Positions 2,774 through 28,332 of a DNA stretch of 32,000 nt are shown here, in pieces; the first letter of the stretch is position 1; each line of letters opens with the position of its first letter. The notes under the pieces are model-generated. The model was not told where the DNA came from. It ran no database searches and worked only from the letters and a program-made list of their open reading frames with translations. Source of the stretch: Staphylothermus hellenicus DSM 12710. Its GTDB lineage: Archaea > Thermoproteota > Thermoprotei_A > Sulfolobales > Desulfurococcaceae. The stretch lies in contig NC_014205.1 in NCBI RefSeq assembly GCF_000092465.1, forward strand, positions 990,001-1,022,000. The letters are read 5' to 3'. Both the position numbers and the translations under genes were made by a program.

Positions 2774-2786
2774 TCTGGGATTATTT

Positions 2787-10198: not shown

Positions 10199-10600
10199 CT
10201 ATTTTTCTAGTTCATGAACTTCTATTTTTTCCATACAAGTATCTGGTGCTTCCTCAGCTATTCTTTTCCAATCAATTCTTTGCTCAACAATGTATCTGAG
10301 ATGCTTTTCGAGAAGCCTTCTAGCTTTTTCACGGCCCAGCCTAGTCGCGTTCCAAGTAACATAGGGTGAATAAAACGATGCTATTTCAACATGTATTTTT
10401 CTCTTCTCTTTATCAACCTTAAACTTTATATAGCCTAGTTCTTTTAGGTGACAAGCAGGATTTGCGCAAAGAATATCTATTTCACATTGATCTTTTTTAA
10501 CAAAAACTATTTTGTATTCATCAGGAGATCTATATATTTTGCCGCAGGGACATTGTAGGAATTCTTCTTCATTGGATGACAAAATACTTTCTTCCCCCAT
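10199..10600 (-). CDS. Small Cys-rich hypothetical protein (possible zinc-ribbon)
   Basis: 'CPCG', 'CEIDILC' and 'CH' give a five-Cys cluster in the first 50 residues. It lies 15 nt upstream of the cytoplasmic GH57, so it is probably co-transcribed. Confidence 0.45.
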   Translation of the reverse strand: MGEESILSSNEEEFLQCPCGKIYRSPDEYKIVFVKKDQCEIDILCANPACHLKELGYIKFKVDKEKRKIHVEIASFYSPYVTWNATRLGREKARRLLEKHLRYIVEQRIDWKRIAEEAPDTCMEKIEVHELEK

Positions 10601-10736
10601 AGCTTCTGTTAAACATATTAATCCAAGTATGATTTTATGAATTATCCGAGTTAATAACTATTGATATAGTAAATAATTTATTTTAATAATGTAATTAAAA
10701 TATGTGGTCTCACCATATAAGCAAACAAAATAGGTA

Positions 10737-10743
10737 TTTAAAA
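10737..10743 (+). promoter_or_regulatory. TATA-like box for the FtsX/ABC operon
   Basis: TTTAAAA lies about 45 nt upstream of the ATG at 10785. GGTGG (10772-10776) sits 8 nt before that ATG. Confidence 0.3.
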
Positions 10744-10769
10744 GAATCATACAAATACTTATACATGAC

Positions 10770-11336
10770 TTGGTGGTCACGGACATGAGCGAGGAAAAAA
10801 CTATACTGCCATTATCTGAAGCTATATATCTTGTTCTTCATAGTATTAGACTCAGAATTGGAAGAATATTAATTGTTATAGTTGCTATAACTGCTAGCAT
10901 AGCATATATGGTTAGCTTGGATATGTTATCTTCCATTCTTATATCAAATATTAATCCCCAAGGTGCTGAAGTATATATGTTATTACTTGATCTAACTGCT
11001 TTCACGGTTGCAGCCGCGGGAACAATGAATTCGTTGCTTATAATGATCGCTGAGAGATACCATGAAATTGGAACTATGAAAAGCTTTGGAGCTAGAGATA
11101 TTCATATTTTCGAATTATTAATGCTGGAAGCTGTTATTCTTACAATTATAGGTGGATTATTAGGATACATTATTGGGATAGGAATAGGATACATGCTAGG
11201 TGGTAGTGGAGATATATTGTTTCTTCTAGAAAAATCATTAGCTGTAGCAGTTATTATTGGCTTAGTTTCAGCATCATATCCATCCTATCAAGCCGCTCGT
11301 ATGAGCCCCGTAGAAGCACTTAGAGTGGAGGTGTGA
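10770..11336 (+). CDS. Minimal FtsX/MacB-type ABC permease (4 TM, no extracytoplasmic domain)
   Basis: FtsX-domain signature 'ERYHEIGTMKSFGARDIHIFELLMLEAVILTIIGGLLGYIIG' and terminal 'SYPSYQAARMSPVEALR'. Only about 10 residues separate TM1 and TM2, where MacB/LolC/FtsX carry a domain of roughly 200 aa. The likely start is the ATG at 10785. Confidence 0.8.
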   Translation: MVVTDMSEEKTILPLSEAIYLVLHSIRLRIGRILIVIVAITASIAYMVSLDMLSSILISNINPQGAEVYMLLLDLTAFTVAAAGTMNSLLIMIAERYHEIGTMKSFGARDIHIFELLMLEAVILTIIGGLLGYIIGIGIGYMLGGSGDILFLLEKSLAVAVIIGLVSASYPSYQAARMSPVEALRVEV

Positions 11337-12106
11337 AAATGCAGAATGCTGAAGAAGCTAAGAATGTAAAGCTGCCTAGCAGGAGAAAACTTGAATATGT
11401 TGTTGAAGCGGTTGAGGTGAAGAAATATTATAAGATGGGCAAGTTTATCGTGAAAGCCCTTGATGGCGTTACATTTAATGTGAAGAGAAGAGAATACGTT
11501 AGTATAATGGGGCCAAGTGGTAGTGGTAAAACAACATTATTCAACATGATCGGAGGACTGGATAGGCCAACCGGTGGAAAAGTCTATATTGACGGAGTCG
11601 ATATAGCGATGCTGGATGCCTATGAACTAGCATGGCTTAGAGCTAAGAAGATAGGATATATTTTCCAAACATTCAACTTAATACCAGTACTCACAGCAGT
11701 AGAGAACGTTATGTTGCCAATGATCTTTGTAGGTACACCATATGAAGATGCAATAGTGAAAGCTAAGAAATTACTGGAGCTTGTTGGGCTTGGAAAATTC
11801 ATACATCATAAACCAGCAGAACTCAGCGGTGGACAGCAGCAGAGAGTGGCTGCTGCTAGAGCACTAGCAAATGATCCATCAATAATACTGGCAGATGAAC
11901 CCACTGGAAACCTAGACTTACATACAGGCTTGAAGCTAATCAATTTATTAAAGGAAATAAATGAGAAAAAAGGTGTCACTATTGTTACTGCAACACATGA
12001 TCTCAAAATGGTTGATGTAAGCGACCGTATTATTTGGATAAGAGATGGTAAGATAGAGAAAATTGAGCTTAGAAGAGATATTGAAGCTGTAATGGGTGAG
12101 CAGTAG
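11333..12106 (+). CDS. ABC transporter ATP-binding protein, MacB/LolD-type (paralog 1)
   Basis: Walker A 'GPSGSGKTT', Q-loop 'FQTFNL', signature 'LSGGQQQRVA', Walker B 'ILADEPTGNLD' and H-loop 'ATHD'. GGAGGTG precedes the ATG at 11339, which is an alternative to the GTG at 11333. Confidence 0.95.
   Translation: MKMQNAEEAKNVKLPSRRKLEYVVEAVEVKKYYKMGKFIVKALDGVTFNVKRREYVSIMGPSGSGKTTLFNMIGGLDRPTGGKVYIDGVDIAMLDAYELAWLRAKKIGYIFQTFNLIPVLTAVENVMLPMIFVGTPYEDAIVKAKKLLELVGLGKFIHHKPAELSGGQQQRVAAARALANDPSIILADEPTGNLDLHTGLKLINLLKEINEKKGVTIVTATHDLKMVDVSDRIIWIRDGKIEKIELRRDIEAVMGEQ
11510..11564. repeat. 55-nt block identical to 12229-12283 (Walker A region of the two ATPase paralogs)
   Basis: Hand alignment shows GGGCCAAGTGGTAGTGGTAAAACAACATTATTCAACATGATCGGAGGACTGGATA in both genes. 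The flanks are clearly diverged. Confidence 0.9.
11855..11895. repeat. 41-nt block identical to 12574-12614 (between the signature motif and Walker B)
   Basis: GCTAGAGCACTAGCAAATGATCCATCAATAATACTGGCAGA occurs in both paralogs. Confidence 0.9.
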
Positions 12107-12834
12107 TGGGGGATGTTGTGATCAAAGTAGTTGATCTCCATAAATACTATGTATTGAAGGGAGAAACCGTAAAAGCTCTTCAGGGAATAAATCTCGAGAT
12201 CTACAGGGGCGAATATGTATCCGTTCTTGGGCCAAGTGGTAGTGGTAAAACAACATTATTCAACATGATCGGAGGACTGGATAAGCCTACATCAGGCAAA
12301 GTATATGTTGACGGAGTAGATATTTATTCTTTGCCGAAGAAGAAACTCGCATATTTTAGAAATAAGAAACTAGGCTATGTTTTCCAAACATATAATCTCA
12401 TACCATATTTAACCGCCGTAGATAATGTAGCATTACCCATGATATTCGCTGGTGTTCCAAGAAAGAAACGTATCGAAAAAGCACGTAGACTTCTAGAAGC
12501 AGTTGGCTTAGGGGAAAGACTCCACCATAGACCCTTCGAGCTTAGCGGTGGACAACAACAGAGAGTAGCCATCGCTAGAGCACTAGCAAATGATCCATCA
12601 ATAATACTGGCAGACGAGCCTACAGCTAATTTAGATCTAGTTACGGGTAAGCAAGTCATTAATTTATTGAAGGATATAAGCTTAACACATAACGTTACAG
12701 TCGTCACCAATACGCATGATTTAAAGATGATTGACGTAAGTGATCGAATAGTCTATATTAGAGACGGAAAAATCGAAAGGATAGAGGAGAGACAAACAGC
12801 TGAGATAAGAGACATAATTATTGATATAAGCTAG
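12106..12834 (+). CDS. ABC transporter ATP-binding protein, MacB/LolD-type (paralog 2)
   Basis: It has the same full motif set ('GPSGSGKTT', 'LSGGQQQRVA', 'ILADEPTANLD', 'NTHD'). It abuts paralog 1 with a 1-nt overlap. The start is GTG at 12106 or GTG at 12118. Confidence 0.95.
   Translation: MGDVVIKVVDLHKYYVLKGETVKALQGINLEIYRGEYVSVLGPSGSGKTTLFNMIGGLDKPTSGKVYVDGVDIYSLPKKKLAYFRNKKLGYVFQTYNLIPYLTAVDNVALPMIFAGVPRKKRIEKARRLLEAVGLGERLHHRPFELSGGQQQRVAIARALANDPSIILADEPTANLDLVTGKQVINLLKDISLTHNVTVVTNTHDLKMIDVSDRIVYIRDGKIERIEERQTAEIRDIIIDIS
12229..12283. repeat. Second copy of the 55-nt identical block
   Basis: See 11510-11564. Confidence 0.9.
12574..12614. repeat. Second copy of the 41-nt identical block
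   Basis: See 11855-11895. Confidence 0.9.
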
Positions 12835-13387
12835 AATATATTTCTTTCAAAAACTCCTCATTTAGTAAAAGCATTCTCTTAATATCAGAGGTAGGCGTTA
12901 ATGTATAGAAAACACGTGTTCTTCCCACTACTATAATACTGGATCCTTTAGAAGACTTTATTTCTTTTCCGACAAGCACTAGCTTATTGCTTGTTTTCAA
13001 TACTATTTCCTCATATTTTGTAGAAAATATTTTATCTCTCAATTTCTCAACGAGTTTGTCAGCTACGTCTTTGAGTTTTCCTTTTCCACTTAATAATAAC
13101 TTCCTACCTAAACCCAGAATACCCTTTTTGACTATGATATCAACAAATCCAATATCCTCTAATTCTTCATCTAATTCTAGAACAGATATTGTTATATAAT
13201 AGAATTCGCCTGTATACTTGGTTGTATTTTTCCCTATGAAAAAATACTTCATATATGGATTATTTTTAAAACGAACTAGAGTTGCTCCTCCTTTATCATA
13301 TATTATTTCTGCTCCAGCTGGTAAGATTTTTTTAAGGGATTTCGATGTTTCACCGGTTAAGCTACTCATATAATTTATTCCCCACAC
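12818..13387 (-). CDS. Hypothetical cytoplasmic protein downstream of the surface GH57
   Basis: 189-codon ORF lying 7 nt after the GH57 stop on the same strand. The start is GTG, with an alternative ATG at 13369. No motif recognised. Confidence 0.4.
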   Translation of the reverse strand: MWGINYMSSLTGETSKSLKKILPAGAEIIYDKGGATLVRFKNNPYMKYFFIGKNTTKYTGEFYYITISVLELDEELEDIGFVDIIVKKGILGLGRKLLLSGKGKLKDVADKLVEKLRDKIFSTKYEEIVLKTSNKLVLVGKEIKSSKGSSIIVVGRTRVFYTLTPTSDIKRMLLLNEEFLKEIYSSLYQ

Positions 13388-13394
13388 CGTTATT

Positions 13395-15920
13395 TCATGA
13401 TCTCTTATGTTTAATATAGTATAGAGCCGCTAAAACAGCTACTATAATCCATAGAATAATCGCTAATATTATGAGCAACTGTGTATTTTCACCTGTATTT
13501 TCCTGCCTAGTTTGCGTTACTATTATTTGTCCAGTGAATTTGTTGTTGTCGATGAATGGATCATATGGTGACACAACATTGACTTCATATGTATAAGTTC
13601 CAGTCTTCAGATCTATGTTGAACACTTCTGTAACGCTATTTTCTCCCTTGAACATGGTGGCTTCTTTAATGTATGTTTGTCCTCCTATTTTCAAATATAT
13701 CTTAACGGGAACATCGAAGGATGCTGTTTCGCCTTCGGCTAGTGAAACAGTTGCAAATATTTTATGTGTGCCTGGAGGCGTAGGATTTATGCCTCCTAAT
13801 ACACCGTTCGGGCCTATAACTGATATTTTTAATGATAGATCAATTGGGCTAAGGAATTTTATTTTGAAATACCTTGTTTCAAGATAAAATGTTTCTTTAC
13901 CAATCTTTGCGTTTGGAGTGTACATTGTTAATACTAGTTGTTTTGTCCCGGCTTTATCCACTTTAAATATTAATGACACATTTACCGAGTCGCCCGGGGA
14001 TATTGTTACTTGTTTAGTTGTAGCATTTATTCCCGGCATACTTAGAGTTATTATGGTGTTCCTCATCTGGTAATCATTATTATTTGTAATTGTTACTATT
14101 GCCTTAGTCGTAGTCTGTGCAACTGGTTGGGATGGTTCCGTTGTAAGGGAAATCTTGTATTTCATAATGTTTGAAATGTCATGGTCAAATTCCTCGAGCC
14201 AAGCATCTATTACACCTGGTGAAAAGAATTCGCTCCACCAGAAATCGCTGTCGATTGCATGTATCAAGTCTATTACGGACTCATTGAATTTGGGGTTCTT
14301 TTTGATTTCATCTATGAATTTATTGTATGAATCTATGTTTTTATAATACATATATGCCTTATACTTCCCTATACGTTCATATAGTTTCTCCCATTCCTCC
14401 TTGTGTTTAGCTCCTTGTTCCGTTGTCCACTTACCCCATCCTCCAAGCCAGCTTGTCCATGTAATACTTGTTAATACTCTTTCCGGTGGATGCACTTTAA
14501 CAGCGTCACTGAATGTTCCAGTATTCATTATTCCCTGATCTGTTAATCTACTAACATACTTATAGATCCTGTCAAGGAATAATGCGCCGTTGGCATGGCT
14601 TGGAGCGAATAATATCCAGTTCTCTCCATCTGCAGCTATTACTTCAATTGGAGGATACTTATAGTTCTTAAATGAGTGCTTATTGTATATATGGTAATAG
14701 AGTGCTCTCGCGTCTCGATCAGCGGTTCTAGCGTCTCCCCAGTCATTATTTGTAAAACCAATATAGCCATCGCTCACCTCCTGATCACGGAAGAAGACAA
14801 TTAACTCTCTTCCCTCATTATCCTTGATAATGTATGGTTCAAATATTGTTCCCTTATCGCCTCGTGCACCGGGAAAGTGGTATGTGCCATCCAAAACCGT
14901 GTATTTGATCCCGAGATCTAAATATATAGGAACCAGTTTATCGCTCCAAGCCATTTCAGCAGTCCATATAGCATCAGTATCTACTCCTAAGACTTTCTTA
15001 GTCCATTCCTTACCTAACCATATATCATATTTGAGAAGATATGGTATATTCAATTTTTCCATTATATAGCCAGCTATTGTATGTGCGAACTCGGTTGTTA
15101 AAAGATATGCTCTGCCTTCATCGTGTAGCTGTTTTAATCCTTTGAAGAAGTCTTTGATTGCCTGGGCAAGCGAGCTGTTAGGCGGTATTTTTCTAGTGGA
15201 ACCAGTATTTGGATCATATATTGTGAACCCCTTATTTGCAGCGATATATAATTGGTATAAGAGGCTTGGACTATAGTGTAGGTTTACCTTGATATTGGGA
15301 TATTTCTTTAATAAATAATAGTGTAGGTAATATGTGCCCATATCAGGGTATGTGTTATCGATCTTGAAGTATGGTGTTAAACTATCTTTGAAAAAGTGAT
15401 CTATATGCCAGTTAGCGAAGAACGTTCCATCAGGCCAATAATTAGGTGCCTGATGATTATGCCAAACAAAAAGTATCATCGGCGGCTTACCTGATGGTGG
15501 TCCATGTCTGATCCAGAAATCAACTGTGTCTTCATATATGACTTGGTTATTCACTATTATCTGCATATGTAGATGATATGTTCCATCATTAACATCTGGA
15601 ACGGTAACTGGTTGTGATTCTACATGGATAAATCTTGCATCATTTGCTGACGGTATTGTTACATGTATTTCGGGAATAGTGGGAGCATTGGGTAGATCTG
15701 TAAAATAAAACTTGATTATTGCTTCTCTGCTTTCTTGAACAAGCGGATACACATATGCTTCCGCAACCATATGTGATCCTGGAAGATATATTGGGGAATC
15801 CGTTGTTACAAACGCATATATCTTATATGTCTGACTCATACCAGGTGATGCTGTGATTAATGAAATGATAATTATTGTGGTAAGCATAATCATAACAGCT
15901 TTATTCATGGCGACCCCCAT
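13395..15920 (-). CDS. Extracellular, membrane-anchored GH57 glycoside hydrolase (amylopullulanase-type)
   Basis: Signal peptide 'MNKAVMIMLTTIIIISLITASPGMSQ'. GH57 motifs are 'VWHNHQAPNY' (nt 15438-15467), 'AIWTAEMAWS', 'AADGENW' and 'HAIDSDFWWSEFF'. A beta-rich C-terminal region is followed by the TM anchor 'LLIILAIILWIIVAVLAALYYIKHKRS'. Confidence 0.85.
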   Translation of the reverse strand: MGVAMNKAVMIMLTTIIIISLITASPGMSQTYKIYAFVTTDSPIYLPGSHMVAEAYVYPLVQESREAIIKFYFTDLPNAPTIPEIHVTIPSANDARFIHVESQPVTVPDVNDGTYHLHMQIIVNNQVIYEDTVDFWIRHGPPSGKPPMILFVWHNHQAPNYWPDGTFFANWHIDHFFKDSLTPYFKIDNTYPDMGTYYLHYYLLKKYPNIKVNLHYSPSLLYQLYIAANKGFTIYDPNTGSTRKIPPNSSLAQAIKDFFKGLKQLHDEGRAYLLTTEFAHTIAGYIMEKLNIPYLLKYDIWLGKEWTKKVLGVDTDAIWTAEMAWSDKLVPIYLDLGIKYTVLDGTYHFPGARGDKGTIFEPYIIKDNEGRELIVFFRDQEVSDGYIGFTNNDWGDARTADRDARALYYHIYNKHSFKNYKYPPIEVIAADGENWILFAPSHANGALFLDRIYKYVSRLTDQGIMNTGTFSDAVKVHPPERVLTSITWTSWLGGWGKWTTEQGAKHKEEWEKLYERIGKYKAYMYYKNIDSYNKFIDEIKKNPKFNESVIDLIHAIDSDFWWSEFFSPGVIDAWLEEFDHDISNIMKYKISLTTEPSQPVAQTTTKAIVTITNNNDYQMRNTIITLSMPGINATTKQVTISPGDSVNVSLIFKVDKAGTKQLVLTMYTPNAKIGKETFYLETRYFKIKFLSPIDLSLKISVIGPNGVLGGINPTPPGTHKIFATVSLAEGETASFDVPVKIYLKIGGQTYIKEATMFKGENSVTEVFNIDLKTGTYTYEVNVVSPYDPFIDNNKFTGQIIVTQTRQENTGENTQLLIILAIILWIIVAVLAALYYIKHKRS

Positions 15921-16002
15921 ATGCTAAATATGATTTGATATTAATAAGGCTATATCTTGTATATAAGTTATTAAATTGCTTGTTTATAAAAACATGTATT
16001 AT

Positions 16003-17958
16003 CTAGTATACTAGTAGCCAGAGACTTTTCATGATTAATGCAACAGCAACCGATATAGCTATCATAAGTCCCTCTCCCAATCCTAGACCTGCTGATATTA
16101 CTGCAACGTATTCCTTAAACCACTCAGATCCTTTCTTTTTCTCCAATATCCTAGCGATAATGCCTCCGATAAACATTGTCATAGTATATGATATTGGCTG
16201 ACTAATACCTATAGTAAATCCTATGAGTTCGAATGGTATCGAGAAGATTTTAACCAACGCAACTATGACTGCTCCAACTATAAATGGTACCATTATTCGT
16301 GTAGGCCAGTTAGAGAAATGCGATAATAATGCAGATGCTACACTGCTCTCACCAGTTTTTAATGCACCACTAGCCCAAGCAGGCCATAACAATGCCCACA
16401 ACGCTGATACACGCCAGAAAACAGCTGATGCTGGATAAGCCGAGCTTGGAATAGGAGCTATTCTCCAAAATATATCTGCATATATTAGGCCCATCAAATA
16501 TGTTAGTGGAAACGCTATAAAGTATGCTTTCAAGTAATCGCTCTTCTTAGTATTTGTCCAATCACATGCAACATAGACTGCTGTCCATCCACTAGCTCCT
16601 CCATAAACATATATGGGTGTAAACCATGCTGCAACACCTCTATAACCACTCGCCAGTAAAGCTCCCTCCTTAACATATGGTAAGTTTATCCCAGTAGCTG
16701 CTTCACCTAAAGCACGAGTATTTGCCAGCTGGAACAACGTAGAGAAACCCACTATTAATGCCAGGAATATTAATAGAAATTGGATAGTAGCATATTGTGG
16801 CTCAACAATGTATACTAGATAATAAACGAACAAGCTTAATCCAGTAGCTGATAACAAATATATTAGGAGAGCAAATCTTGTAAGCGGCAAACCCCAAATA
16901 GTAGGCTCTGAAACCGTGCTTGCTTCTCTACCACGTATCTTTGGGGGTCTAAATACTCTAACAACGCTTCTCCAATTAATAACCATTGGCGCTAATCCTG
17001 CTGCAAAACTCAACCCTATTAATGGCCCCACATATAGTTGGAGCAACCCATACTGGAAAATATCTCCTAGATTCATTCCCGGCCTCCACAATGTAAATAA
17101 TCCATACTTGACAGCCATTGGAGCACCTATTAGATAAGCAAATATTCCTCCAATAAATATTGACACATTAACTTTCCAAGGCATAATCATACCTATACTT
17201 ATCAATAGTAGATCTAGGCTGAAACCCAGACTAGCACCATTCAATCCTATAGATTCCAGAGAAGATGTTAGATCAGCCCATGGAACAGGAAGTAGCTGAA
17301 CGCCAAACATGAACCAAACACCATATAGTAGGAAGGTGTAAAGTAAACTGAATACTGCAACACTAATCATTACCCTAGCCTTATCTCTCCAAATATGTTT
17401 TTCTGCAAGAACAATACTTGATTCAGCCCATATCCTAGCACCTGGGAACGGTAATTTTTCTTCTACAGCATATATCTTGTAGAGCACATATGCTAGACTA
17501 AGATCCATACCCTTGGTAAGTAGGGCAGATGCAATAGCTACAAGAAGAGGCGGGATGAAAACTGCTTGGAAAAGTGTTCTAGGCAGTTCAGGAATAGTGG
17601 GAGCATACCAGAACGGTATCTTACCATATAATCCGAAACTTCTAGCATATTCGCTTATAGCAATATACCATGCAAGTATAAGGTTCACCCCGAACAAGCT
17701 CTCAGAAATAGTTGTTCCAACATTACTAAACATTACAAATGCTTCTTGACGAGTAAGCCTAGCCCCCATTATTGCGGCTATAGTTGTAAACAACAACAAT
17801 GTAGTATATTCTGCAGAATTAATTATCTGCCAGGGATTAAGACCTGCAACCAAGTTAAGCCATATAGCTGCAGGCTCAAATACTAGTGCTCCATAAAGAA
17901 TAGCTAAAACAACACGCCATGTAACAGCTGATCCTCCATTGCTCGTGGATTCGGCCAA
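16003..17958 (-). CDS. Large polytopic membrane protein, putative transporter (distant OPT-superfamily-like), paralog A
   Basis: 651 aa, hydrophobic throughout with many TM segments. 'EEKLPFPGARIWAES' (nt 17419-17463) and C-terminal 'VISAGLGLGEGLMIAIS' resemble remembered OPT motifs (L.FPsGtA.AE; aSGLIaGeal). The TTG start is preceded by GGGAGG. Confidence 0.5.
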   Translation of the reverse strand: MAESTSNGGSAVTWRVVLAILYGALVFEPAAIWLNLVAGLNPWQIINSAEYTTLLLFTTIAAIMGARLTRQEAFVMFSNVGTTISESLFGVNLILAWYIAISEYARSFGLYGKIPFWYAPTIPELPRTLFQAVFIPPLLVAIASALLTKGMDLSLAYVLYKIYAVEEKLPFPGARIWAESSIVLAEKHIWRDKARVMISVAVFSLLYTFLLYGVWFMFGVQLLPVPWADLTSSLESIGLNGASLGFSLDLLLISIGMIMPWKVNVSIFIGGIFAYLIGAPMAVKYGLFTLWRPGMNLGDIFQYGLLQLYVGPLIGLSFAAGLAPMVINWRSVVRVFRPPKIRGREASTVSEPTIWGLPLTRFALLIYLLSATGLSLFVYYLVYIVEPQYATIQFLLIFLALIVGFSTLFQLANTRALGEAATGINLPYVKEGALLASGYRGVAAWFTPIYVYGGASGWTAVYVACDWTNTKKSDYLKAYFIAFPLTYLMGLIYADIFWRIAPIPSSAYPASAVFWRVSALWALLWPAWASGALKTGESSVASALLSHFSNWPTRIMVPFIVGAVIVALVKIFSIPFELIGFTIGISQPISYTMTMFIGGIIARILEKKKGSEWFKEYVAVISAGLGLGEGLMIAISVAVALIMKSLWLLVY

Positions 17959-18114
17959 TTAAGCCACAACCTCCCATATTTTGCGTTATTCAAATACCTC
18001 TGCCTAAAATAAATAGAATCTTTAAGACCCATATTTAAAATTAAGCAAGAACTAAAAATAATAGTTCGACATATTTTTCTTAGACAAGTAAAAAATTATT
18101 TATAATTTGTTAAG

Positions 18115-20145
18115 TTATGTTCCCAATACATATGATAACCATATCATTATATAGCTGAATATTGCTAATCCAGCCATGAACGGCACTATCTTCTCCTCGT
18201 ATCCCTCTACACCTGTAACCCTTATAATGATCCATTTAGAAATCAATGCTATAATGTTTGGTATAAACATTAGTAGTCCGGTAACAGGCATATCACCTAT
18301 CAATATACCTATTGGATTAAACGGTACACCTGGGAACAAGAGCCTTACCCACACCAGTAATATTCCAAGTATTATTCCAACAACAAACTGCGGCATGAAG
18401 AGCGTTGGATCATTACTCATGTGTTGTATATAGTTTTGATGAACCATGCTATCGATCCAGTTTGGCTCAAACCCTGTATCTGCTCCACCAACCCATTTAC
18501 CACCTACAGAGCCGAACCATCCATAATAGTATAGTCCTAGTAGAGTTATTAGGAATGATAATATTATACCGGAGATCACTGCTATGAAAGATATTTTAAC
18601 CACCTTGTTAGGATTGACACCTCCAACCTTAGCTAGTTTGAACCCCTCCATAACTGCTGGGCCAGGAGTTGTAGCTAATGCACGATCATTGACTAATGGG
18701 TAAAATGATGCTGCAGCTGCAAATGCTTCTTTCGAGTGCCAGTTACCGCTATACCTGTATGGCAGCCATGGCAGTACTAGCATTTCATGCCACCAAGGAC
18801 CATAGTTATAGATTGCTGTGGTCCATGTTGATTCTCCACGTATACGCATCCATGTAATATATAATAGTAGAGTCACTACTACGACGAGCAATGCTATATG
18901 GGGTTCTACGCCTGTTCCGGCCAGTAATCCCCATGCTAGTAAGAAACCTATTATTGCAAAGATTGTTCCAAACCATACTTCTTTATCACTTCTCAAATTC
19001 TTGAGATGCCTCCAGGCTAGTGCAAACCATGCTATGGGGAAACCTATTGCTAAACCCCTTGTCACCATATGAGGCATTAAACCATACCAGTGGCCGATTG
19101 TGAAATAGTTTGTGTGTGCATCCTGTGTTTCCGTAAGGGGTACTATACCTAAGGATACCTCGATTGGCGGCAACACTATATACATGAGGAAATACCATAC
19201 AACAGCTGTAATCAATATATCCATTGGCATCAGAAATGCTAAACCAATGAATAATGGTGCAACAGTAATCATTAATGCTATATCATATCCTATTGATGGA
19301 GAAAGATCGTAGCCTCCATACTGGGATACGAGTAATTGACCATAGATTGACGGCAGGTCCTGTATTATCTTTAATGAAGCCAACAGGTTGGGCAGTAGCA
19401 TAACTACTGCAACAACAGCTCCTACTAAGAACATTATCTTCGAGATAAACCTATGCTCAGAAGCCCCCTTGAACCCTGTTATTCTCATAACTTCAACAGC
19501 CATTTGTGCGTATGGGAATGGTAACATTTCCTCCTCTATCCATGGCTTACGAAACATTAACGCAATACCTATTTGAGCCATTGCTAAACCGAAAAAGACA
19601 AGTATCCACAGCGTCAGCGATGGTGCCCACGCACTTAATACTATGCCTACCCAGTTAGGATCAGATAATAGCATTGAACGAGCTGATTCATTAAATATTG
19701 GTGCTAATGCAGGTATTTCTTGGCCATTAACAATGATCGTGCCCTTAGGAACCCATAGATCAGGCATTAATGCTCCATTATCAGTTATTGATGGAACCTG
19801 ATAAGTCATATAGGCATAATGGACCAGTAGGAAATTCGCTGAGAAAGCATAACCAGCACTCGCAGCAATAGCTATATAGATCAAAACTGCATCAGCAACA
19901 GTTAAAGCAAGTCTTTTACTGATCAATGCAACTATTAAATTGAGAACACCTATTACCAGTAATAATATAAGCGCTGCCCATGCCCATACCCATTCGAGAA
20001 AAGTGCTCGGCCACGCTAATCCATATAGTAAGTTCGTTATAATCGGAGCTAGAATAGCCATTATTATAGCTACAACAACTCCTTTAATGGTGACGCTAGC
20101 AGGTGAAACACCCCATAATAGTTTCTTTCCCTCTTCAACTGACAT
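18115..20145 (-). CDS. Large polytopic membrane protein, putative transporter, paralog B of 16003..17958
   Basis: 676 aa with many TM segments. It shares 'EEEMLPFPYAQMAVE' (nt 19492-19536) and a C-terminal 'PF.PIG..IG..P....MFI..IIA' block with paralog A. GGTGG precedes the ATG. Confidence 0.5.
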   Translation of the reverse strand: MSVEEGKKLLWGVSPASVTIKGVVVAIIMAILAPIITNLLYGLAWPSTFLEWVWAWAALILLLVIGVLNLIVALISKRLALTVADAVLIYIAIAASAGYAFSANFLLVHYAYMTYQVPSITDNGALMPDLWVPKGTIIVNGQEIPALAPIFNESARSMLLSDPNWVGIVLSAWAPSLTLWILVFFGLAMAQIGIALMFRKPWIEEEMLPFPYAQMAVEVMRITGFKGASEHRFISKIMFLVGAVVAVVMLLPNLLASLKIIQDLPSIYGQLLVSQYGGYDLSPSIGYDIALMITVAPLFIGLAFLMPMDILITAVVWYFLMYIVLPPIEVSLGIVPLTETQDAHTNYFTIGHWYGLMPHMVTRGLAIGFPIAWFALAWRHLKNLRSDKEVWFGTIFAIIGFLLAWGLLAGTGVEPHIALLVVVVTLLLYITWMRIRGESTWTTAIYNYGPWWHEMLVLPWLPYRYSGNWHSKEAFAAAASFYPLVNDRALATTPGPAVMEGFKLAKVGGVNPNKVVKISFIAVISGIILSFLITLLGLYYYGWFGSVGGKWVGGADTGFEPNWIDSMVHQNYIQHMSNDPTLFMPQFVVGIILGILLVWVRLLFPGVPFNPIGILIGDMPVTGLLMFIPNIIALISKWIIIRVTGVEGYEEKIVPFMAGLAIFSYIMIWLSYVLGT

Positions 20146-24794: not shown

Positions 24795-26621
24795 TCATTT
24801 TTTCTTCTTTAATAGTAGAGCTATTATAATAATGAGTACTAGCGCTGCAATTACTATAGTCCAAACCAATAATCCTCCTCCACCACCTGTTATTCCTCCT
24901 GTTGAATATACTACTTTTAATTCGTGCACGCCCGGTTGATCCAGTGCAAATGTTGCTTGTGCTTCATCGCCTACTATAGTATACTGTAGCTCAGCATCAT
25001 CGATCATTATTTTGCTTAATGTATAAACTCCCGCCTTTAAAGGTACTTGTATAACGTATGTTTCTGGCACTCTAAAACCGGGTCTAGGAGGCGAGACAGA
25101 TTGATCTAGTGCTGTGATGTTTCTAGATGCTGGAGCCGAGGAGCCCTTGAATAATAGTTCTCCAGCCGAGCCAAGTAGTGTAAAGTTTATAGTTTCAGCT
25201 TGTTGAGGTAGATATGAGCCGTCAGGCGTTACAAATAAGATGACTAGCTTAGCTAATGGCTTAATCCTGAACTTTAAAGTAATCGTATCGCCTTCCTTCA
25301 ATGTAGCATTTACTTTTGATCCTGTGACTTCTGTTCCATTAGGTAGTATCCAACTTGTGAATACAAATTCTCCGTAGCCATCCCTTGTAATTCCTGTTTG
25401 TGGAGAGATTTCTAGAATATATGGTGCATTACTGTATGGTATTTTAACCGTGAACTCGTTGCTTTCAATCTCTGTTTGAACATATGGTGTTCCAGAATAA
25501 TAGTCATAAATAGATATCGCTGCCTTAGGCACGCCAGTGCCTCCTTCGGTAGCTATTTTAATATTAATAGGGTATTTAAGCTCTACAGCAACAACCCTGC
25601 ACGGTATTTTGGGGGAGAAAGCTGGGTTATAGAAGAAGGTCTTATATTGTTGTTCCGTAAAACCTGCTTCTCTAACTAAGTATTCGCGGTGGAGGGGACC
25701 AGCATAGATTTTCATATGGTATTCTTCGCTTTCGCCAGGGTTTAGTGTTAATGGTTTAAACTCTACACGTATAATGGTATTCTGTGCACCTCCAGCACTG
25801 GTTTCAAACCATACATAGCTTGTTTTTGAAACTGTTTCATCATCCGTCATGAATAATGCGATCATAAAGCCCCATGGTGATGGATCGGTTGTGTTATCAT
25901 AGATTCCAATACCCTTCAATGTGCCATTAACCTTTACCGGTCCTCCTGGAGCTCCTCCCCAGCTTGATCCCTGATAATAGGACTCTATTTTACCATCATT
26001 GAACAACATAAACTGGTATTCATCCTGCTTACTACCCATCAACGATACTAGCTCGATCATTGGGCCTGAAGAGCGTCCCCAAGGTTCTGAAAGATCAATT
26101 GTTACAGGGTTCGTTCCAGTATTGGTTAGTGTCATGTTGAAGTCCACAATAAATGATTCATTATATACACGATATGTTTTAATCACTTTTAACCCTGGAA
26201 ATGGCGTGTTTTCGTCTAGAGTATATGTGATCTGTATAGTTGTATAATTTTGTGTTTCCTCTAACACTTCATACGAAGCTTTAGCGTAAACAGCATGTCC
26301 TTCCCATGGATTGTTATCAGATATAATATCCCACATTAATGCATGAATAGTTGATTCTTTCCCAGCCAATCCACCCCTATCAGCAGCCATGCCTTTTTTA
26401 GCTACGGGGGTGTTTTTGAAATCACTACATACTGGTTGAATATTTTGTATTGCTCCACCATGTTCTAGGTCCCAAGTAATTTTCAGATAGGACTCAGTCA
26501 CTGTAACAGTATTGTCTGTCTCTGTCACAGCGGATAAGGCAGGTGTTGATGCAGAGAATAAACTAGCGATTACTACTCCTATTAAGAAGCTTAATAGAAA
26601 TCTATCAAGCAATTTCATCAA
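24795..26621 (-). CDS. Secreted, C-terminally anchored beta-rich surface protein of unknown function
   Basis: Signal-like 'FLLSFLIGVVIASLFSASTPALSA', Gly-rich linker 'GGITGGGGG', and TM plus basic tail 'LLVWTIVIAALVLIIIIALLLKKKK'. The likely start is the ATG at 26618, preceded by GGTGG. Confidence 0.6.
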   Translation of the reverse strand: MMKLLDRFLLSFLIGVVIASLFSASTPALSAVTETDNTVTVTESYLKITWDLEHGGAIQNIQPVCSDFKNTPVAKKGMAADRGGLAGKESTIHALMWDIISDNNPWEGHAVYAKASYEVLEETQNYTTIQITYTLDENTPFPGLKVIKTYRVYNESFIVDFNMTLTNTGTNPVTIDLSEPWGRSSGPMIELVSLMGSKQDEYQFMLFNDGKIESYYQGSSWGGAPGGPVKVNGTLKGIGIYDNTTDPSPWGFMIALFMTDDETVSKTSYVWFETSAGGAQNTIIRVEFKPLTLNPGESEEYHMKIYAGPLHREYLVREAGFTEQQYKTFFYNPAFSPKIPCRVVAVELKYPINIKIATEGGTGVPKAAISIYDYYSGTPYVQTEIESNEFTVKIPYSNAPYILEISPQTGITRDGYGEFVFTSWILPNGTEVTGSKVNATLKEGDTITLKFRIKPLAKLVILFVTPDGSYLPQQAETINFTLLGSAGELLFKGSSAPASRNITALDQSVSPPRPGFRVPETYVIQVPLKAGVYTLSKIMIDDAELQYTIVGDEAQATFALDQPGVHELKVVYSTGGITGGGGGLLVWTIVIAALVLIIIIALLLKKKK

Positions 26622-26731: not shown

Positions 26732-27097
26732 TTATATCAAGAATTTAAGTCTATGCATTAATACTAAGACTCCTGCGAAACGGGCTTTTAAACCATTCAT
26801 AATATTATCTCTAGGCGGATCAAGAAAATATCCTTTGTAAAGGCCTGATAAATTAGTAATGTAGAAAGCTTGAAGAACAAATAAGGTTAGTGCAACTAGT
26901 TTCCAGGGTTTATTCTTTATTATTTGAATTATATCGTTGGTTACGTGATCAATTCTATTTATAAGCTCTTCATATACATCTATTCCCTCATCAATCATTG
27001 CAATGAATAAATCGTTTAAATCAATACCGTATTCTCTCAATAGATCATGTAGAGCTGTCTCAATCGGTATTGTTAAGTATTTTTCACCATTCAACAC
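26732..27097 (-). CDS. Hypothetical small protein with one TM segment
   Basis: 121-codon ORF overlapping the end of the upstream gene by 14 nt, with a GTG/TTG start. It has one hydrophobic helix 'WKLVALTLFVLQAFYI'. Confidence 0.4.
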   Translation of the reverse strand: MLNGEKYLTIPIETALHDLLREYGIDLNDLFIAMIDEGIDVYEELINRIDHVTNDIIQIIKNKPWKLVALTLFVLQAFYITNLSGLYKGYFLDPPRDNIMNGLKARFAGVLVLMHRLKFLI

Positions 27098-27935
27098 AAT
27101 AAGTACCCTTCACAATGTCTATTGCTTCATCAAGTCTTTTACGGGGTGCTTTAACCAGTGTATATTGTATATAGTCGGGTTTAACACATTTATTTATCTT
27201 CTTCAGTAAGACTCCATATTTAATCCTCTTCAATAAGGCATGTGCTATGTAATATTCTTCATAAGAATTCTTGCTAATGAGAACTAACTTTGTAAATCTA
27301 GGAATAAGGTATCTCAGATGCTTCTTGAAAATATCGTCTTCGCTTACCTCTTGAGATTCAATAACGTATCTGGCTATAGAATACTGTATTACATGCACTT
27401 TCTTATCTCTACTCATAAAATAAGCCATACTATAACCTATTTTGAAATCTCTAAGATTAACAAAGTAATCCTCATATAGTCTCAACCCTATACCCATTAG
27501 TCTCCAATTAACCATTCCATTATGGATTGGATGACAATTTATATTGCCTAGAATACTCATAAATGATCCCATAGATGCTGATACGCCATCTAATTGGACT
27601 ATAAATAATCGTCTTGTCTCGTCGCAAAACCATGACGCAGTAAATACTTTGTTGTTTTCATCTCTCAAAAAATATCCTAATACTTTATGTTTATGTAGCG
27701 TTGTCGAGAAACTACTTTTTCTAGTAAATCCTTTTTTCTCGAGTTTTCCAAGGTATTTCTCATAGGCTTTAGGGAAATCGCTTGGCTTACTATGTCTCCA
27801 ATATATTTCGAGTTTTGCACCGGTTTCAGGCGCAGCTACTAGGACTCCATTAATACTTGTTCCGCCCTCTCTAGTTATTTCCCATCCACTCGGTAGTTTT
27901 ACTTCGACCTTGTTCCAAGAAATTAGTTTATCCAA
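27084..27935 (-). CDS. Hypothetical protein (no recognised domain)
   Basis: 283-codon ORF. The TTG start is preceded by GGTG 8 nt upstream. It follows the PqqD-like gene on the same strand. Confidence 0.5.
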   Translation of the reverse strand: MDKLISWNKVEVKLPSGWEITREGGTSINGVLVAAPETGAKLEIYWRHSKPSDFPKAYEKYLGKLEKKGFTRKSSFSTTLHKHKVLGYFLRDENNKVFTASWFCDETRRLFIVQLDGVSASMGSFMSILGNINCHPIHNGMVNWRLMGIGLRLYEDYFVNLRDFKIGYSMAYFMSRDKKVHVIQYSIARYVIESQEVSEDDIFKKHLRYLIPRFTKLVLISKNSYEEYYIAHALLKRIKYGVLLKKINKCVKPDYIQYTLVKAPRKRLDEAIDIVKGTYCVEW

Positions 27936-27948
27936 GTATACGGCACCA

Positions 27949-28332
27949 CTATTTCTCCGGGATTTTTAATTCTATCAGGCCCTTCATTACAAGTGTTTTT
28001 ATATAGTGGTAAACAGCTAATTCAACATTTCTCCTGGAAAGACCGGTTATAGATGCTATTTTCTTAACTATGTTTTCAACGGTGTGTTCTCCATCACACA
28101 TTTTCCACACGATAGATCCTATTTTGTCGAGTACTATTCTTTTATATTTCGGCGGCGGAGTTATAGAGATCGCCTTAATTATTTTACCGATCAAACCCTT
28201 ATATTCGAGCTCGACGAGGATTGTAACTATGCCATCATCATCCTCTGTATAGTCTTCAACTACACGTATAGGAATTGATTTAAGCCATCGCTCCCTCTCA
28301 ATTCTTATACCTTTAGATCTTTTGAATATCAT
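27949..28332 (-). CDS. PqqD-family (RiPP-recognition-element-like) small protein
   Basis: 'LDKIGSIVWKMCDGEHTVENIVKKIASITGLSRRNVELAVYHYIKTLVMKGLIEL' (nt 27967-28131) fits the remembered PqqD/PF05402 pattern (Ln.tg..iW.l.dG..tv.eiv..l...y.v......D v..fl..L...gli). Its ATG overlaps the glycogen synthase stop as ATGA. Confidence 0.65.
   Translation of the reverse strand: MIFKRSKGIRIERERWLKSIPIRVVEDYTEDDDGIVTILVELEYKGLIGKIIKAISITPPPKYKRIVLDKIGSIVWKMCDGEHTVENIVKKIASITGLSRRNVELAVYHYIKTLVMKGLIELKIPEK

Follow-up and report, generated by a model that had tools for sequence, protein, structure and literature searches.

Type VII ABC systems (MacB, LolCDE, FtsEX, BceAB and YbbAP) are the model for ATP-driven extramembrane mechanical work. 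To our knowledge, the characterised systems are all bacterial and are all thought to require a Porter ectodomain, which is present on every characterised FtsX unit save one half of BceB. We know of no member among MacB, FtsEX, HrtBA, YtrEF and YbbAP that has two distinct ATPases, OPT-superfamily partners or PqqD-like partners. LolCDE is composed of two permeases and one type of ATPase, and LolD is homodimeric. According to a 2018 review, an extracytoplasmic domain with a Porter subdomain is located between TM1 and TM2 in all known type VII members, and MacB, FtsX and HrtB are homodimers (PMC5985334). BceB possesses two FtsX bundles and a single ECD (PMC9169098).

In this study, a stretch of 32,000 nucleotides from the archaeon Staphylothermus hellenicus DSM 12710 was analysed (the window; positions are counted from its first nucleotide). 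It contains an operon of one minimal FtsX and two ATPases, and a second gene block around a giant FtsX fusion. The features of the two blocks and their flanks are listed in Table 1.

Table 1. Genes of the operon, the giant block and their flanks in the window.
Feature	Position	Strand	Basis
133-aa Cys-containing protein, divergent from operon	10199..10600	-	synteny; homologs in L033 and L059
Minimal FtsX permease unit, 188 aa	10770..11336	+	Pfam FtsX; TM scan; conserved length
ATPase 1, 257 aa, MacB/LolD-type NBD, kind directly downstream of small FtsX	11333..12106	+	ABC_tran E=1.8e-33
ATPase 2, 242 aa, second catalytically complete NBD	12106..12834	+	ABC_tran E=5.5e-36
189-aa soluble protein, convergent with ATPase 2	12818..13387	-	overlaps ATPase 2 3' end by 17 nt
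OPT-superfamily-like polytopic membrane protein, final gene of giant block	16003..17958	-	Pfam OPT E=5.1e-10
DUF6785 polytopic membrane protein, directly downstream of giant	18115..20145	-	Pfam E=1.6e-29
Giant FtsX fusion, 1476 aa	20250..24680	-	Pfam M28, MacB_PCD, FtsX; PDB profiles; AF2; Foldseek
608-aa secreted/anchored protein, between 283-aa gene and giant	24795..26621	-	block conserved in L091-L094
121-aa protein within giant block, lineage-restricted	26732..27097	-	position conserved
Conserved 283-aa soluble protein, accompanies PqqD	27084..27935	-	iterative HMM
PqqD-like protein (peptide-chaperone fold), first gene of Desulfurococcales giant block	27949..28332	-	Pfam E=5.5e-8

The minimal FtsX and its tandem ATPases

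The three ORFs of the operon are co-directional. At both junctions, between FtsX and ATPase 1 and between ATPase 1 and ATPase 2, the stop codon overlaps the next start codon, which suggests that the three proteins may be co-translated. The sole Pfam match of the first ORF is the FtsX C-terminal domain (E=1.1e-15). Four TM segments are predicted by hydropathy, with a TM1-TM2 loop of about 10 residues (SNINPQGAEV), and this protein has the shortest TM1-TM2 interval of the 48 small FtsX proteins compared. The four-TM FtsX fold of the type VII ABC (MacB/FtsX, ABC3) superfamily is possessed by both the minimal FtsX and the giant; the extracytoplasmic (Porter) domain of this superfamily is found in the giant's unit and is absent from the minimal FtsX. 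BLASTP detected no direct similarity of the minimal FtsX to the FtsX unit of the giant.

The protein is annotated by NCBI with 183 aa from the ATG at 10785 (P0001, 100% identical, Staphylothermus hellenicus), and this ATG is probably the true start. A longer protein is impossible, since 10770 is the most upstream start and the gap to the divergent gene is 170 bp. Relatives of the minimal FtsX fall into 21 clusters with 57-100% identity, every one of 168-211 aa, and the cytoplasmic loop ER-Y-x-EIGTMKSFGARD is invariant across all of them. The conservation of both the short length and the loop denotes a functional gene and not a fragment.

ATPase 1 carries an N-terminal extension of about 20 aa and is 66% identical to ATPase 2, so that the two are distinct yet fairly close paralogs. 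The canonical motif set of MacB/LolD/FtsE-type NBDs (Walker A, Q-loop, signature, Walker B-Glu and H-loop) is present in both, with GPSGSGKTT, the Q-loop, LSGGQQQR, ILADEPT and THD. The top NCBIfam matches of both ATPases are LolD, MacB, DarD, DevA and FtsE, all under the equivalog cut-offs. A degenerate ATP site in one of the paralogs, as in a functionally asymmetric NBD dimer, was found in no clade.

A previous sequence-only reading of this DNA had described a 188-aa FtsX with a TM1-TM2 loop of about 10 residues and no ectodomain, followed by two catalytically complete MacB/LolD-type ATPase paralogs. The ORF coordinates, Pfam and hydropathy confirm the former, and the degree of identity and the intact motifs bear out the latter.

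The giant FtsX fusion

The giant, a DUF214 fusion, starts with a signal/anchor TM followed by an ectodomain (about residues 24-812) of M28-PA-helical, beta-sandwich and helical stalk parts. Three TMs come next, then a MacB-like unit (about 938-1316) with TM1, a PCD ectodomain and TM2-4, and at the C-terminal end a helix-grip-like alpha/beta tail in the cytoplasm (about 155 aa). The Pfam FtsX match has E=3.4e-12, and the MacB_PCD score is 24.1 bits (cut-off 27). AF2 models were obtained with pLDDT of 83 and 89. Based on PDB profiles, AF2 and Foldseek, the C-terminal module resembles MacB, LolCE, HrtB, YtrF and YbbP; the Foldseek matches of the models are MacB (E=3e-12 for the module), LolCDE, HrtBA and YbbAP, and the model aligns about 450 columns with MacB and LolCE.

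The Foldseek matches of the ectodomain are TfR and GCPII. Its alignment to them covers about 510-590 columns and exceeds the length of bacterial PA-M28 aminopeptidases, so that the match probably reaches the helical domain. The M28 catalytic Glu-Glu motif is missing in all 26 giants (26/26), and the first His zinc ligand is retained mainly in archaeal giants and lost in nearly all bacterial ones; the ectodomain as an active M28 aminopeptidase effector was rejected on both grounds. Judged from the models, the ectodomain is a catalytically dead, transferrin-receptor-like M28-PA fold.

The giant is the sole other FtsX module in the window, on the opposite strand and 7.4 kb from the operon end, and is flanked by no ATPase gene on either side. 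This bears out the earlier claim that it is the only other FtsX module and has no adjoining ATPase. No ATPase adjoins the giant in L007, L009 or L091-L094 either, and in L008 the single ATPase within 10 kb belongs to a phosphonate ABC transporter. These results show that the giant bears a genuine MacB-like permease unit and lacks an ATPase of its own.

Genomic coupling across archaea and bacteria

A total of 80 species-representative GTDB loci were collected by anchoring on ATPase 1, and neighbours were taken within 10 kb. ATPase 1 was chosen as the anchor because the giant family is too divergent for back-translated patterns. Twenty-two of the 80 loci carry an ortholog of the giant, and a small FtsX is located directly upstream of the ATPase in every one of them (22/22); the giant with an ATPase and without the small FtsX was found in 0/22. 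All genes occur in a single cluster in Sumerlaeota, Lentisphaerota, Planctomycetota, Verrucomicrobiota, Desulfobacterota and one Thermoproteati archaeon (tight clusters in L010, L020, L033, L036, L049, L053, L063, L085 and others), co-directional in bacteria and divergent in the archaeon (L033). The Sumerlaeota operon is arranged as DUF6785, giant, OPT-like, FtsX, ATPase, PqqD and ATPase, and its parts specifically match their counterparts in the window. The ATPases are 60% and 54% identical, the higher value being that of ATPase 1 with the FtsX-adjacent ATPase; the OPT-like protein is 27% identical over its full length to a 690-aa protein (E=1e-44); and PqqD matches with E=5.5e-8. The synteny of the operon and giant blocks is conserved in Desulfurococcales. 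Adjacency to the giant was lost in one lineage (L005, L006 and L011), and one Desulfurococcales MAG has the blocks unlinked with both present (L011 and L093).

Across archaea and six or more bacterial phyla, the gene neighbourhoods show the ectodomain-less FtsX, with its one or two ATPases, to be linked in the genome to the giant and to the DUF6785, OPT-like, PqqD-like and 283-aa proteins. The core idea of the sequence-only reading, that the giant's missing partner is the minimal FtsX with its ATPases, gains strong support from the 22 loci, the clusters, the unlinked MAG and the confinement of tandem ATPases to this system.

Other parts of that reading fared less uniformly. It had argued that two ATPases imply two permeases. 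Tandem ATPases are indeed confined to the giant-linked system among the ATPase-anchored loci, but nine giant clusters, including all those of Desulfobacterales, encode two FtsX proteins with a single ATPase. The LolC/LolE analogy offered for this argument is not supported, because LolCDE, like these nine clusters, combines two permeases with one ATPase type. The reading also asked whether the small FtsX and tandem ATPases always accompany the giant, which applies to the small FtsX in the 22 loci and not to the tandem ATPases; around the three distant archaeal giants of L007-L009, neither a small FtsX nor an ATPase of the operon type lies within 10 kb in this locus-level view. Tandem ATPases do not occur outside the system, but an ectodomain-less FtsX with one ATPase and no large FtsX within 10 kb was found in no fewer than six full-length loci (L014, L017, L021, L023, L025 and L029), and Brocadiia possess the 283-aa protein, PqqD, FtsX and ATPase with no giant nearby. 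Such modules may act alone or with partners encoded elsewhere.

In the NJ tree of the ATPases, ATPase 2 clusters with archaeal orphan ATPases (84% bootstrap), and the bacterial second ATPases, encoded after PqqD, form a separate clade with weak support (0.57). ATPase 2 was accordingly rejected as an ortholog of the bacterial post-PqqD ATPase, and its grouping with the orphans denotes no ancient dedicated partner. The tree suggests that a second ATPase may have been gained more than once; being non-universal and apparently acquired repeatedly, it is not a defining part of the system. Proteins of about 600 aa adjoining the orphan ATPases were considered as partner candidates and turned out to be ABCE1/RLI, a housekeeping gene.

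The accessory genes extend the earlier four-part set of minimal FtsX, giant and two ATPases, which was too short. Of the 22 GTDB loci with a giant, 15 have DUF6785 adjoining it, as do L007, L009, L010 and Desulfurococcales. DUF6785 shows weak homology (E=2e-7) to the OPT-like protein, which adjoins the giant in most loci and scores 39 bits with Pfam OPT (cut-off 25.8), mainly over the C-terminal 80 residues, and 28 against 128 bits with NCBIfam OPT_sfam. The PqqD-like protein scores 33.5 bits with PF05402 (cut-off 23.4), and the specific NCBIfam PqqD equivalogs are all below cut-off; it was found in 21 loci, lies between both ATPases in L010-type clusters and is fused to the giant in P0051. 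The 283-aa protein was found by iterative HMM in 20 loci of several phyla, where it adjoins PqqD or closes the cluster, and it has no Pfam or NCBIfam match and no meaningful PDB-profile match.

The 133-aa protein is syntenic across all Desulfurococcales loci, with homologs between FtsX and the ATPases in L033 and next to an orphan ATPase2-like gene in L059, and is probably an accessory component. The co-directional block of the 608-aa gene is conserved in L091-L094, and no homolog of it was found beyond Desulfurococcales in the loci searched. The 121-aa protein has no homolog in the loci searched; a gene of 123-127 aa occupies its position in L091-L094, matched by size and position alone. The 189-aa protein is syntenic in every Desulfurococcales locus, including L005 and L011 without an adjacent giant, and is absent elsewhere; whether it belongs to the system is uncertain. 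A role in carbohydrate utilisation, hinted at by GH57 and glycogen-synthase neighbours in the window and, for Sumerlaeota, by neighbouring GH130, GH43 and malectin genes, was rejected, since most flanking genes in the remaining phyla have housekeeping roles (RelA, ProRS, PhoH and RNR) and the carbohydrate theme is inconsistent.

A proposed split engine, its alternatives and known systems

On balance, the operon probably specifies the membrane and cytoplasmic parts of an engine that belongs to a conserved multi-gene type VII ABC system, with the giant fusion as its output subunit and the minimal FtsX and the giant as a heterodimer. The minimal FtsX would pair with the giant's FtsX unit into an asymmetric transmembrane heterodimer, a split version of BceB, and ATPases 1 and 2 would dock below it as an NBD heterodimer with two active sites, giving the 1:1:1:1 heterotetramer put forward in the sequence-only reading as a hypothesis. 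ATP-driven NBD closure would shift the stalk helices, and the mechanical work would reach one side only, because the giant alone has a Porter-type domain and a large TfR-like ectodomain. The two OPT-superfamily membrane proteins would probably be the target of this work or take part in it, and the PqqD-like and 283-aa proteins and the helix-grip-like tail of the giant may work from the cytoplasmic side. For the cargo, a peptide or a hydrophobic ligand is a weak guess. Natural single-chain fusions of an ectodomain-bearing to an ectodomain-less FtsX unit exist (P0208, P0223 and P0230) and, along with BceB, are the best precedents for this pairing; Bathyarchaeota show a similar pattern, with another large FtsX protein next to a mini-FtsX and ATPase. 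Against the pairing, the likeness of the ectodomain to TfR and GCPII would also be compatible with giant-giant contacts, and the ectodomain might dimerise by itself.

A more far-reaching interpretation, which we hold only tentatively, is an undescribed widespread envelope machine in which a split BceB-like engine would drive the OPT-superfamily pair, with the PqqD-like chaperone and the tail handling cargo. If true, mechanotransmission coupled to a secondary-transporter fold would be a new mode of ABC-dependent uptake or export. The range named for this machine comprises Thermoproteota including Bathyarchaeia, Desulfobacterota, Planctomycetota, Verrucomicrobiota, Lentisphaerota and Sumerlaeota, with a heterodimeric NBD pair of two active sites in some lineages.

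Alternatively, the giant, held by its TfR-like ectodomain, and the minimal FtsX may form two separate homodimers in one pathway with no shared transmembrane dimer, each with one ATPase or both served by one ATPase where it is single. TfR and GCPII, the closest folds of the ectodomain, homodimerise through the helical domain, MacB, FtsX and HrtB are homodimeric as well, and two ATPases for two permeases fit one each. The standalone pairs of mini-FtsX and ATPase imply that the mini-FtsX is presumably able to homodimerise. However, a single ATPase serves two permeases in nine giant clusters, and the absence, among the 22 loci, of a giant with an ATPase and no small FtsX is unexpected if the giant could use the ATPase alone. 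From the single-chain fusions it is evident that ectodomain-less units usually pair with ectodomain-bearing ones. Since a review regards the Porter domain as intrinsic to mechanotransmission (PMC5985334), an ectodomain-less homodimer would have no Porter domain for doing work and hence no output. We consider two homodimers unlikely.

Slightly less likely again is a generic promiscuous module, in which the mini-FtsX and its ATPase(s) would energise several large FtsX proteins in trans, including the giant, those of about 950-1076 aa and others. In eight Bathyarchaeota loci, the large FtsX protein next to a mini-FtsX and ATPase is not the giant but another one of about 950 aa, and in L033 the giant and a 1076-aa FtsX protein flank one mini-FtsX with two ATPases. 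The ATPase family is also unusually conserved across phyla (60-77% identity), and giant-linked and standalone ATPases are interleaved in the tree. Nevertheless, most bacterial clusters hold exactly one large FtsX, the giant, in the operon of the small FtsX, and the PqqD and 283-aa genes go specifically with the small FtsX and ATPase. A promiscuous module would in any case overlap with the split engine and does not exclude it. An independent small ABC exporter, whose proximity to the giant would be inherited gene order without function, could account for plain vertical synteny in Desulfurococcales, the lineage without adjacency (L005, L006 and L011) and the opposite strands with a GH57 gene between the blocks in the window, but is very improbable, because the blocks co-occur even when unlinked and the same components are joined into single operons in several gene orders in distant phyla (Sumerlaeota, Lentisphaerota, Planctomycetota, Verrucomicrobiota and Desulfobacterota), which rules out inherited synteny as the explanation.

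Nothing describing this system was found in the literature, with no mention of DUF6785, of DUF6784 with Staphylothermus, or of PqqD with FtsX; the titles and abstracts joining 'type VII ABC' with archaea name no archaeal system. We have identified a conserved FtsX family without any ectodomain, whose plausible role is the 'blind' half of an asymmetric pair, and which is tied to proteins without assigned function (the giant DUF214 fusion, DUF6785/DUF6784, the OPT-like and the 283-aa protein). Among type VII systems, the one proposed here would be the first to use two different ATPases that are both fully active, as predicted from their motifs. The system is present in cultured Staphylothermus marinus, S. 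hellenicus and Desulfospira joergensenii DSM 10085, and the hypothesis is thus directly testable.

The proposed split engine is closest to BceAB of Bacillus subtilis, which has two FtsX-fold bundles over two NBDs and an ectodomain on one bundle (PMC9169098). The gene content here likewise provides one ectodomain-less and one ectodomain-bearing unit, and we infer the joint complex from synteny. BceAB is asymmetric and performs mechanical work outside the cell with no transmembrane transport, as would the machine proposed here. Unlike BceB, a single 10-TM polypeptide with two identical BceA, the FtsX units here come from two genes that lie 7.4 kb apart, and the ATPases of this lineage are of two kinds; the unit that bears the ectodomain is the 1476-aa fusion, whose ectodomain is TfR-like and which also has a cytoplasmic tail. 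The partners also differ, being OPT-like, DUF6785 and PqqD-like proteins here; no histidine-kinase or response-regulator match of a BceRS-type partner was found among the Pfam-scanned ORFs of the window.

LolCDE contains a heterodimer of two distinct FtsX-type permeases, encoded alongside an ATPase of the MacB/LolD type, as is proposed here, and the single-ATPase clusters of Desulfobacterales share the LolCDE gene logic of two permeases and one ATPase. LolC and LolE, however, both possess Porter/Sabre ectodomains and are of similar size, whereas here one permease is ectodomain-less, the other is about eight times larger, and two ATPases are present in the operon. The equivalog scores are far below the cut-offs (35.5 against 362 bits for lolCE, TIGR02212; 225-231 against 308 for LolD, TIGR02211). 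As far as we know, archaea have neither an outer membrane nor a Lol pathway. FtsEX differs as well, with FtsE scores of 196-199 bits against a cut-off of 265 (TIGR02673) and a minimal FtsX without ECD, whereas in FtsEX the ECD of FtsX binds an activator of cell-wall hydrolases; archaea are also devoid of peptidoglycan.

The giant ectodomain shares the loss of catalytic residues with the M28-derived ectodomains of TfR, nicalin and nicastrin; unlike these and that of GCPII, it is fused to a type VII permease unit, with beta-sandwiches and a helical stalk following. The FtsX fold in both permease units and the LolD/MacB/FtsE-type NBDs are shared with MacB, FtsEX, HrtBA, YtrEF and YbbAP, and the C-terminal module of the giant has the TM1, ectodomain, TM2-4 layout of MacB. 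By this analogy, the principle of mechanotransmission is probably common to these systems and to that of the operon.

Minimal FtsX operon and its genomic coupling to the giant

The three-ORF operon, the short-loop FtsX and the two complete ATPases described in the sequence-only reading were all confirmed by ORFs, Pfam, hydrophobic segments and motifs, and at each of the two junctions (FtsX/ATPase1 and ATPase1/ATPase2) the stop codon of one gene overlaps the start codon of the next. The minimal FtsX is identical (100%) to the NCBI entry 'ABC transporter permease [Staphylothermus hellenicus]'. Its sole Pfam domain is the FtsX C-terminal domain (E=1.1e-15), and its four hydrophobic segments include a TM1-TM2 spacer of about 10 residues (SNINPQGAEV). 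A longer protein is not possible, since no start codon lies between 10770 and the preceding stop, and the divergent gene is just 170 bp away. Nor is it a decayed fragment, because the length is kept at 168-211 aa in all 21 clusters (57-100% identity), where numerous positions, among them the cytoplasmic ER-Y-x-EIGTMKSFGARD loop, are invariant.

Positions of the operon, the giant and neighbouring features in window coordinates
Feature	Position	Strand	Description
MoxR-VWA pair	1628-4118	+	MoxR-type AAA+ ATPase (bpMoxR, E=6e-66), then VWA-domain protein
GH57 gene	8264-10183
133-aa Cys-containing protein	10199-10600	-	no family assignment
Minimal FtsX	10770-11336	+	188 aa; first of three co-directional ORFs
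ATPase1	11333-12106	+	257 aa; ABC_tran, E=1.8e-33
ATPase2	12106-12834	+	242 aa; ABC_tran, E=5.5e-36
189-aa soluble protein	12818-13387	-	convergent with ATPase2, overlapping its last 17 nt
GH57 gene	13395-15920		between operon and giant block
OPT-like protein	16003-17958	-
DUF6785 protein	18115-20145	-
Giant	20250-24680	-	1476 aa; M28, MacB_PCD and FtsX matches
Giant C-terminal tail	20250-20720		residues ~1320-1476; cytoplasmic, well conserved across phyla
608-aa protein	24795-26621	-
121-aa protein	26732-27097	-
283-aa soluble protein	27084-27935		recurrent partner
PqqD-like protein	27949-28332		127 aa; start overlaps stop of the next gene by 4 nt
Glycogen-synthase-like gene	28329-29978		GT5/GT4
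GH57 gene	29997-31946

The sequence-only reading had placed the minimal FtsX, the giant and both ATPases in one asymmetric heterotetramer. As it noted, the giant has no ATPase gene beside it, its neighbours being the DUF6785 protein and the 608-aa protein. The order 133-aa gene, FtsX-ATPase-ATPase, 189-aa gene, GH57, OPT-like, DUF6785 and giant is kept in two Desulfurococcales lineages (loci L001-L004; minimal FtsX 72% and 66% identical to that of the window), and a third lineage (L005, L006) keeps the operon with no giant block at that position. Decisive evidence for the link is supplied by distant relatives. Locus L010 from a Sumerlaeota bacterium forms one co-directional cluster of DUF6785/DUF6784, giant (1743 aa), a 690-aa protein, FtsX (343 aa), ATPase, PqqD and ATPase. 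Each of its components has a specific counterpart in the window. The two ATPases share 60% and 54% identity with ATPase1 and ATPase2, the 690-aa protein can be aligned from end to end with the window's OPT-like ORF (E=1e-44), and its PqqD matches the 127-aa window ORF, which is confirmed as PqqD by Pfam.

Since giants vary too much in sequence to be found by pattern scans, GTDB species representatives were scanned with ATPase1 as the anchor, and the resulting 80 loci with 10-kb flanks were annotated by ORF calling and iterative profiles. The giant is present in 22 loci. They come from Desulfobacterales (with Desulfospira joergensenii DSM 10085 as a cultured member), Lentisphaerota/Victivallales, Planctomycetota, Verrucomicrobiota and Brocadiia, and further from 'Zipacnadia' and from a completely sequenced Thermoproteati archaeon. 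The genes are ordered differently from phylum to phylum, so their association has survived rearrangement. Eleven loci possess accessory genes only, with no giant within the stretch fetched; eight from Bathyarchaeota have a different large FtsX protein (~950 aa) with a mini-FtsX and one ATPase; and 19 encode orphan ATPases without adjacent permease. The expectation that minimal FtsX and tandem ATPases always accompany the giant stood only in part: a small FtsX lies directly upstream of an ATPase in 22/22 giant loci, but two ATPases are found in only 13 and one in the other nine. A giant with an ATPase and no small FtsX occurs in none of the 80 ATPase-anchored loci. As to the operon without the giant, small FtsX and ATPase stand alone in 20 of the 80 loci, whereas tandem ATPases were never found outside the system. 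The only apparent exception, L011, belongs to these 20 and lies on contig JALWZC010000048; a giant block (L093) is on JALWZC010000053 of the same MAG, and thus operon and giant co-occur even when unlinked. The empirical rule that tandem ATPases imply the giant system holds in this sample.

The two ATPases and the recurrent partners

ATPase1 and ATPase2 share 66% identity and a full set of catalytic motifs, from which both are predicted to be active. In NCBIfam both score best against LolD, MacB, DarD, DevA and FtsE, in every case under the equivalog cut-off. No ATPase clade has a degenerate ATP site, because the canonical motifs are kept throughout. In the neighbor-joining tree (200 bootstraps), ATPase2 and its Desulfurococcales orthologs cluster with archaeal orphan ATPases adjoining ABCE1, their closest relatives (bootstrap 0.84). 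The bacterial second ATPase forms a clade of its own with weak support (0.57), both ATPases of L033 are sisters, and the position of ATPase1 is not resolved. These groupings suggest that a second ATPase was gained more than once. Orphan MacB/LolD-type ATPases next to ABCE1/RLI are found in many Thermoproteota and Bathyarchaeota (L015, L019, L037, L048, L060, L062, L064 and L065), the neighbor being Pfam-confirmed for L015 and L048. LolCDE has a single type of ATPase. For this reason, and because nine giant clusters have one ATPase, the earlier argument from LolC/LolE that two ATPases imply two permeases is formally wrong.

The system is larger than proposed, with DUF6785, OPT-like, PqqD-like and the 283-aa protein as recurrent partners. 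PqqD, 283-aa, 121-aa, 608-aa, giant, DUF6785 and OPT-like genes form a seven-gene co-directional block kept in Desulfurococcales. DUF6785 and the OPT-like protein display weak homology (E=2e-7), and the 283-aa protein has no match in Pfam, NCBIfam or PDB profiles. In precomputed Pfam matches, the distant giant homolog P0051 (1902 aa) has a PqqD domain fused into its own chain, which independently points to PqqD as a component of the system. Homologs of the 133-aa protein lie inside the operon of a Thermoproteati archaeon, between small FtsX and ATPases (L033:9542-9991), and beside an orphan ATPase2-like gene on a Bathyarchaeota contig (L059:3482-3820); it may be an ATPase-associated accessory factor. 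With this gene and the seven-gene block included, the system in the window spans ~10199-28332, interrupted by a GH57 gene.

All Desulfurococcales loci have the 189-aa gene in synteny, also those whose giant lies elsewhere; its product has no Pfam or NCBIfam match and no homolog beyond Desulfurococcales. Four loci (L091-L094) present GH57, GH57, GT and then PqqD through giant to OPT as one co-directional array, an alpha-glucan link that is local to Desulfurococcales. A carbohydrate role was rejected, as the carbohydrate genes adjoining the system in the window and in Sumerlaeota do not recur consistently in other phyla. The MoxR-VWA pair appears typical and unrelated to the operon.

Fold of the giant and ectodomain range of the small FtsX

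The N-terminal region of the giant-family profile matches PA-domain M28 aminopeptidases, transferrin receptor (TfR), nicalin and nicastrin, and residues 915-1333 match MacB, LolF, YtrF and LolC/E. The AF2 model of residues 900-1476 (pLDDT 83) consists of TM1, a beta-rich ectodomain and TM2-4, and resembles MacB (E=3e-12), LolCDE, HrtBA, YbbAP, YtrEF, FtsEX and BceAB. Weaker Foldseek matches (E ~3e-3) to helix-grip/SRPBCC proteins, namely norcoclaurine synthase, PR-10, Aha1 and Rieske-oxygenase catalytic domains, probably correspond to the 155-aa cytoplasmic tail, a tentative assignment that hints at hydrophobic-ligand binding. The ectodomain model (pLDDT 89, pTM 0.88) aligns with TfR and GCPII over ~510-590 columns, with additional beta-sandwiches and a three-helix stalk. 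The Glu-Glu motif of M28 is absent from 26/26 giants, which rules out a peptidase, and most bacterial giants have also lost the first His ligand. Judged from this loss of catalytic residues, the ectodomain is predicted to be a non-catalytic binding or scaffold module.

The TM1-TM2 interval of giant-associated small FtsX ranges from no insertion in the window to ~310 residues. Archaeal members have 15-20 residues, those of Victivallis and Desulfobacterales 31-48, and those of L010-type clusters 145-170. The ectodomain of the small partner is thus dispensable, and the window protein represents the extreme state. An exhaustive profile search detected 7,413 relatives at E<=1e-10; among the best 150 cluster representatives, ~40 are ectodomain-less proteins of 180-240 aa. 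Natural fusions of an ectodomain-bearing and an ectodomain-less unit into a single 8-TM chain were also found (P0208, P0223 and P0230; MacB_PCD detected by Pfam in the first two only), and further long relatives are multi-unit BceB-like proteins. Four of 1,700-2,800 aa (P0191, P0273, P0285 and P0303) have two or three tandem BceB-like double-FtsX units, and their C-termini, read from sequence, resemble a membrane-sensor region with an adenylate/guanylate-cyclase-like domain after it. In P0200, P0234 and P0215, ectodomain-less units have other modules fused at the N-terminus. The module is either a large extracellular part that contains M61-N/Ig-like or M6 (immune inhibitor A-like) peptidase domains and comes with an extra TM, or a PilZ (c-di-GMP-binding) domain on the cytoplasmic side. 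In eight Bathyarchaeota loci (L016, L028, L031, L032, L038, L042, L061 and L077), mini-FtsX (~200 aa) and one ATPase are convergent with a ~950-1000-aa protein. This protein combines an ectodomain at the N-terminus with additional TMs and one FtsX domain (MacB_PCD detected in L031 only) and is a smaller analogue of the giant that lacks its N-domain and C-tail signatures.

Proposed machine and comparison with known systems

A 2018 review describes the Porter subdomain as intrinsic to mechanotransmission and, as believed at that time, common to every type VII member (PMC5985334). An ectodomain-less homodimer would therefore have no obvious output, and pairing of the minimal FtsX with an ectodomain-bearing unit is favoured by this analogy. 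We infer that the minimal FtsX and the FtsX unit of the giant form a split BceB-like heterodimer over an ATPase1/ATPase2 dimer, working together with the two OPT-superfamily proteins. ATP-driven motion would be passed to the Porter-type domain and TfR-like ectodomain of the giant, and the PqqD-like protein, the 283-aa protein and the tail would act on the cytoplasmic side. The peptide theme (M28-like, OPT, PqqD) and the helix-grip-like tail give only hints of the cargo.

Separate homodimers of the giant and of the mini-FtsX, or a shared promiscuous engine serving more than the giant, are possible. TfR-like ectodomains dimerise, some mini-FtsX and ATPase pairs stand alone with no large partner in the surrounding 10 kb, and neither a small FtsX nor a matching ATPase lies within 10 kb of three distant archaeal giants (L007, L008 from GCA_041641295.1 and L009 from GCA_025059045.1). 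Four Brocadiia loci (L044, L046, L055 and L056) encode the 283-aa protein, PqqD, an FtsX (~470 aa, full ectodomain) and an ATPase, and giant, DUF6785 and OPT-like genes are all missing from their 10-kb flanks; these four genes may be a core module able to exist alone.

No NCBIfam equivalog covers any accessory part, and the literature search gave no mention of DUF6785 or of PqqD together with FtsX. The structural precedent for the split heterodimer is BceB, where TM1-4 and TM7-10 are two FtsX folds and the sole extracellular domain lies between TM7 and TM8 (PMC9169098). The type VII ABC mechanotransducer is a kind already known; what is new compared to characterised systems is the proposed architecture, in which one half-permease lacks the Porter domain and the other is a giant with a TfR-like ectodomain, an optional hetero-NBD pair, and OPT-like, DUF6785 and PqqD partners.
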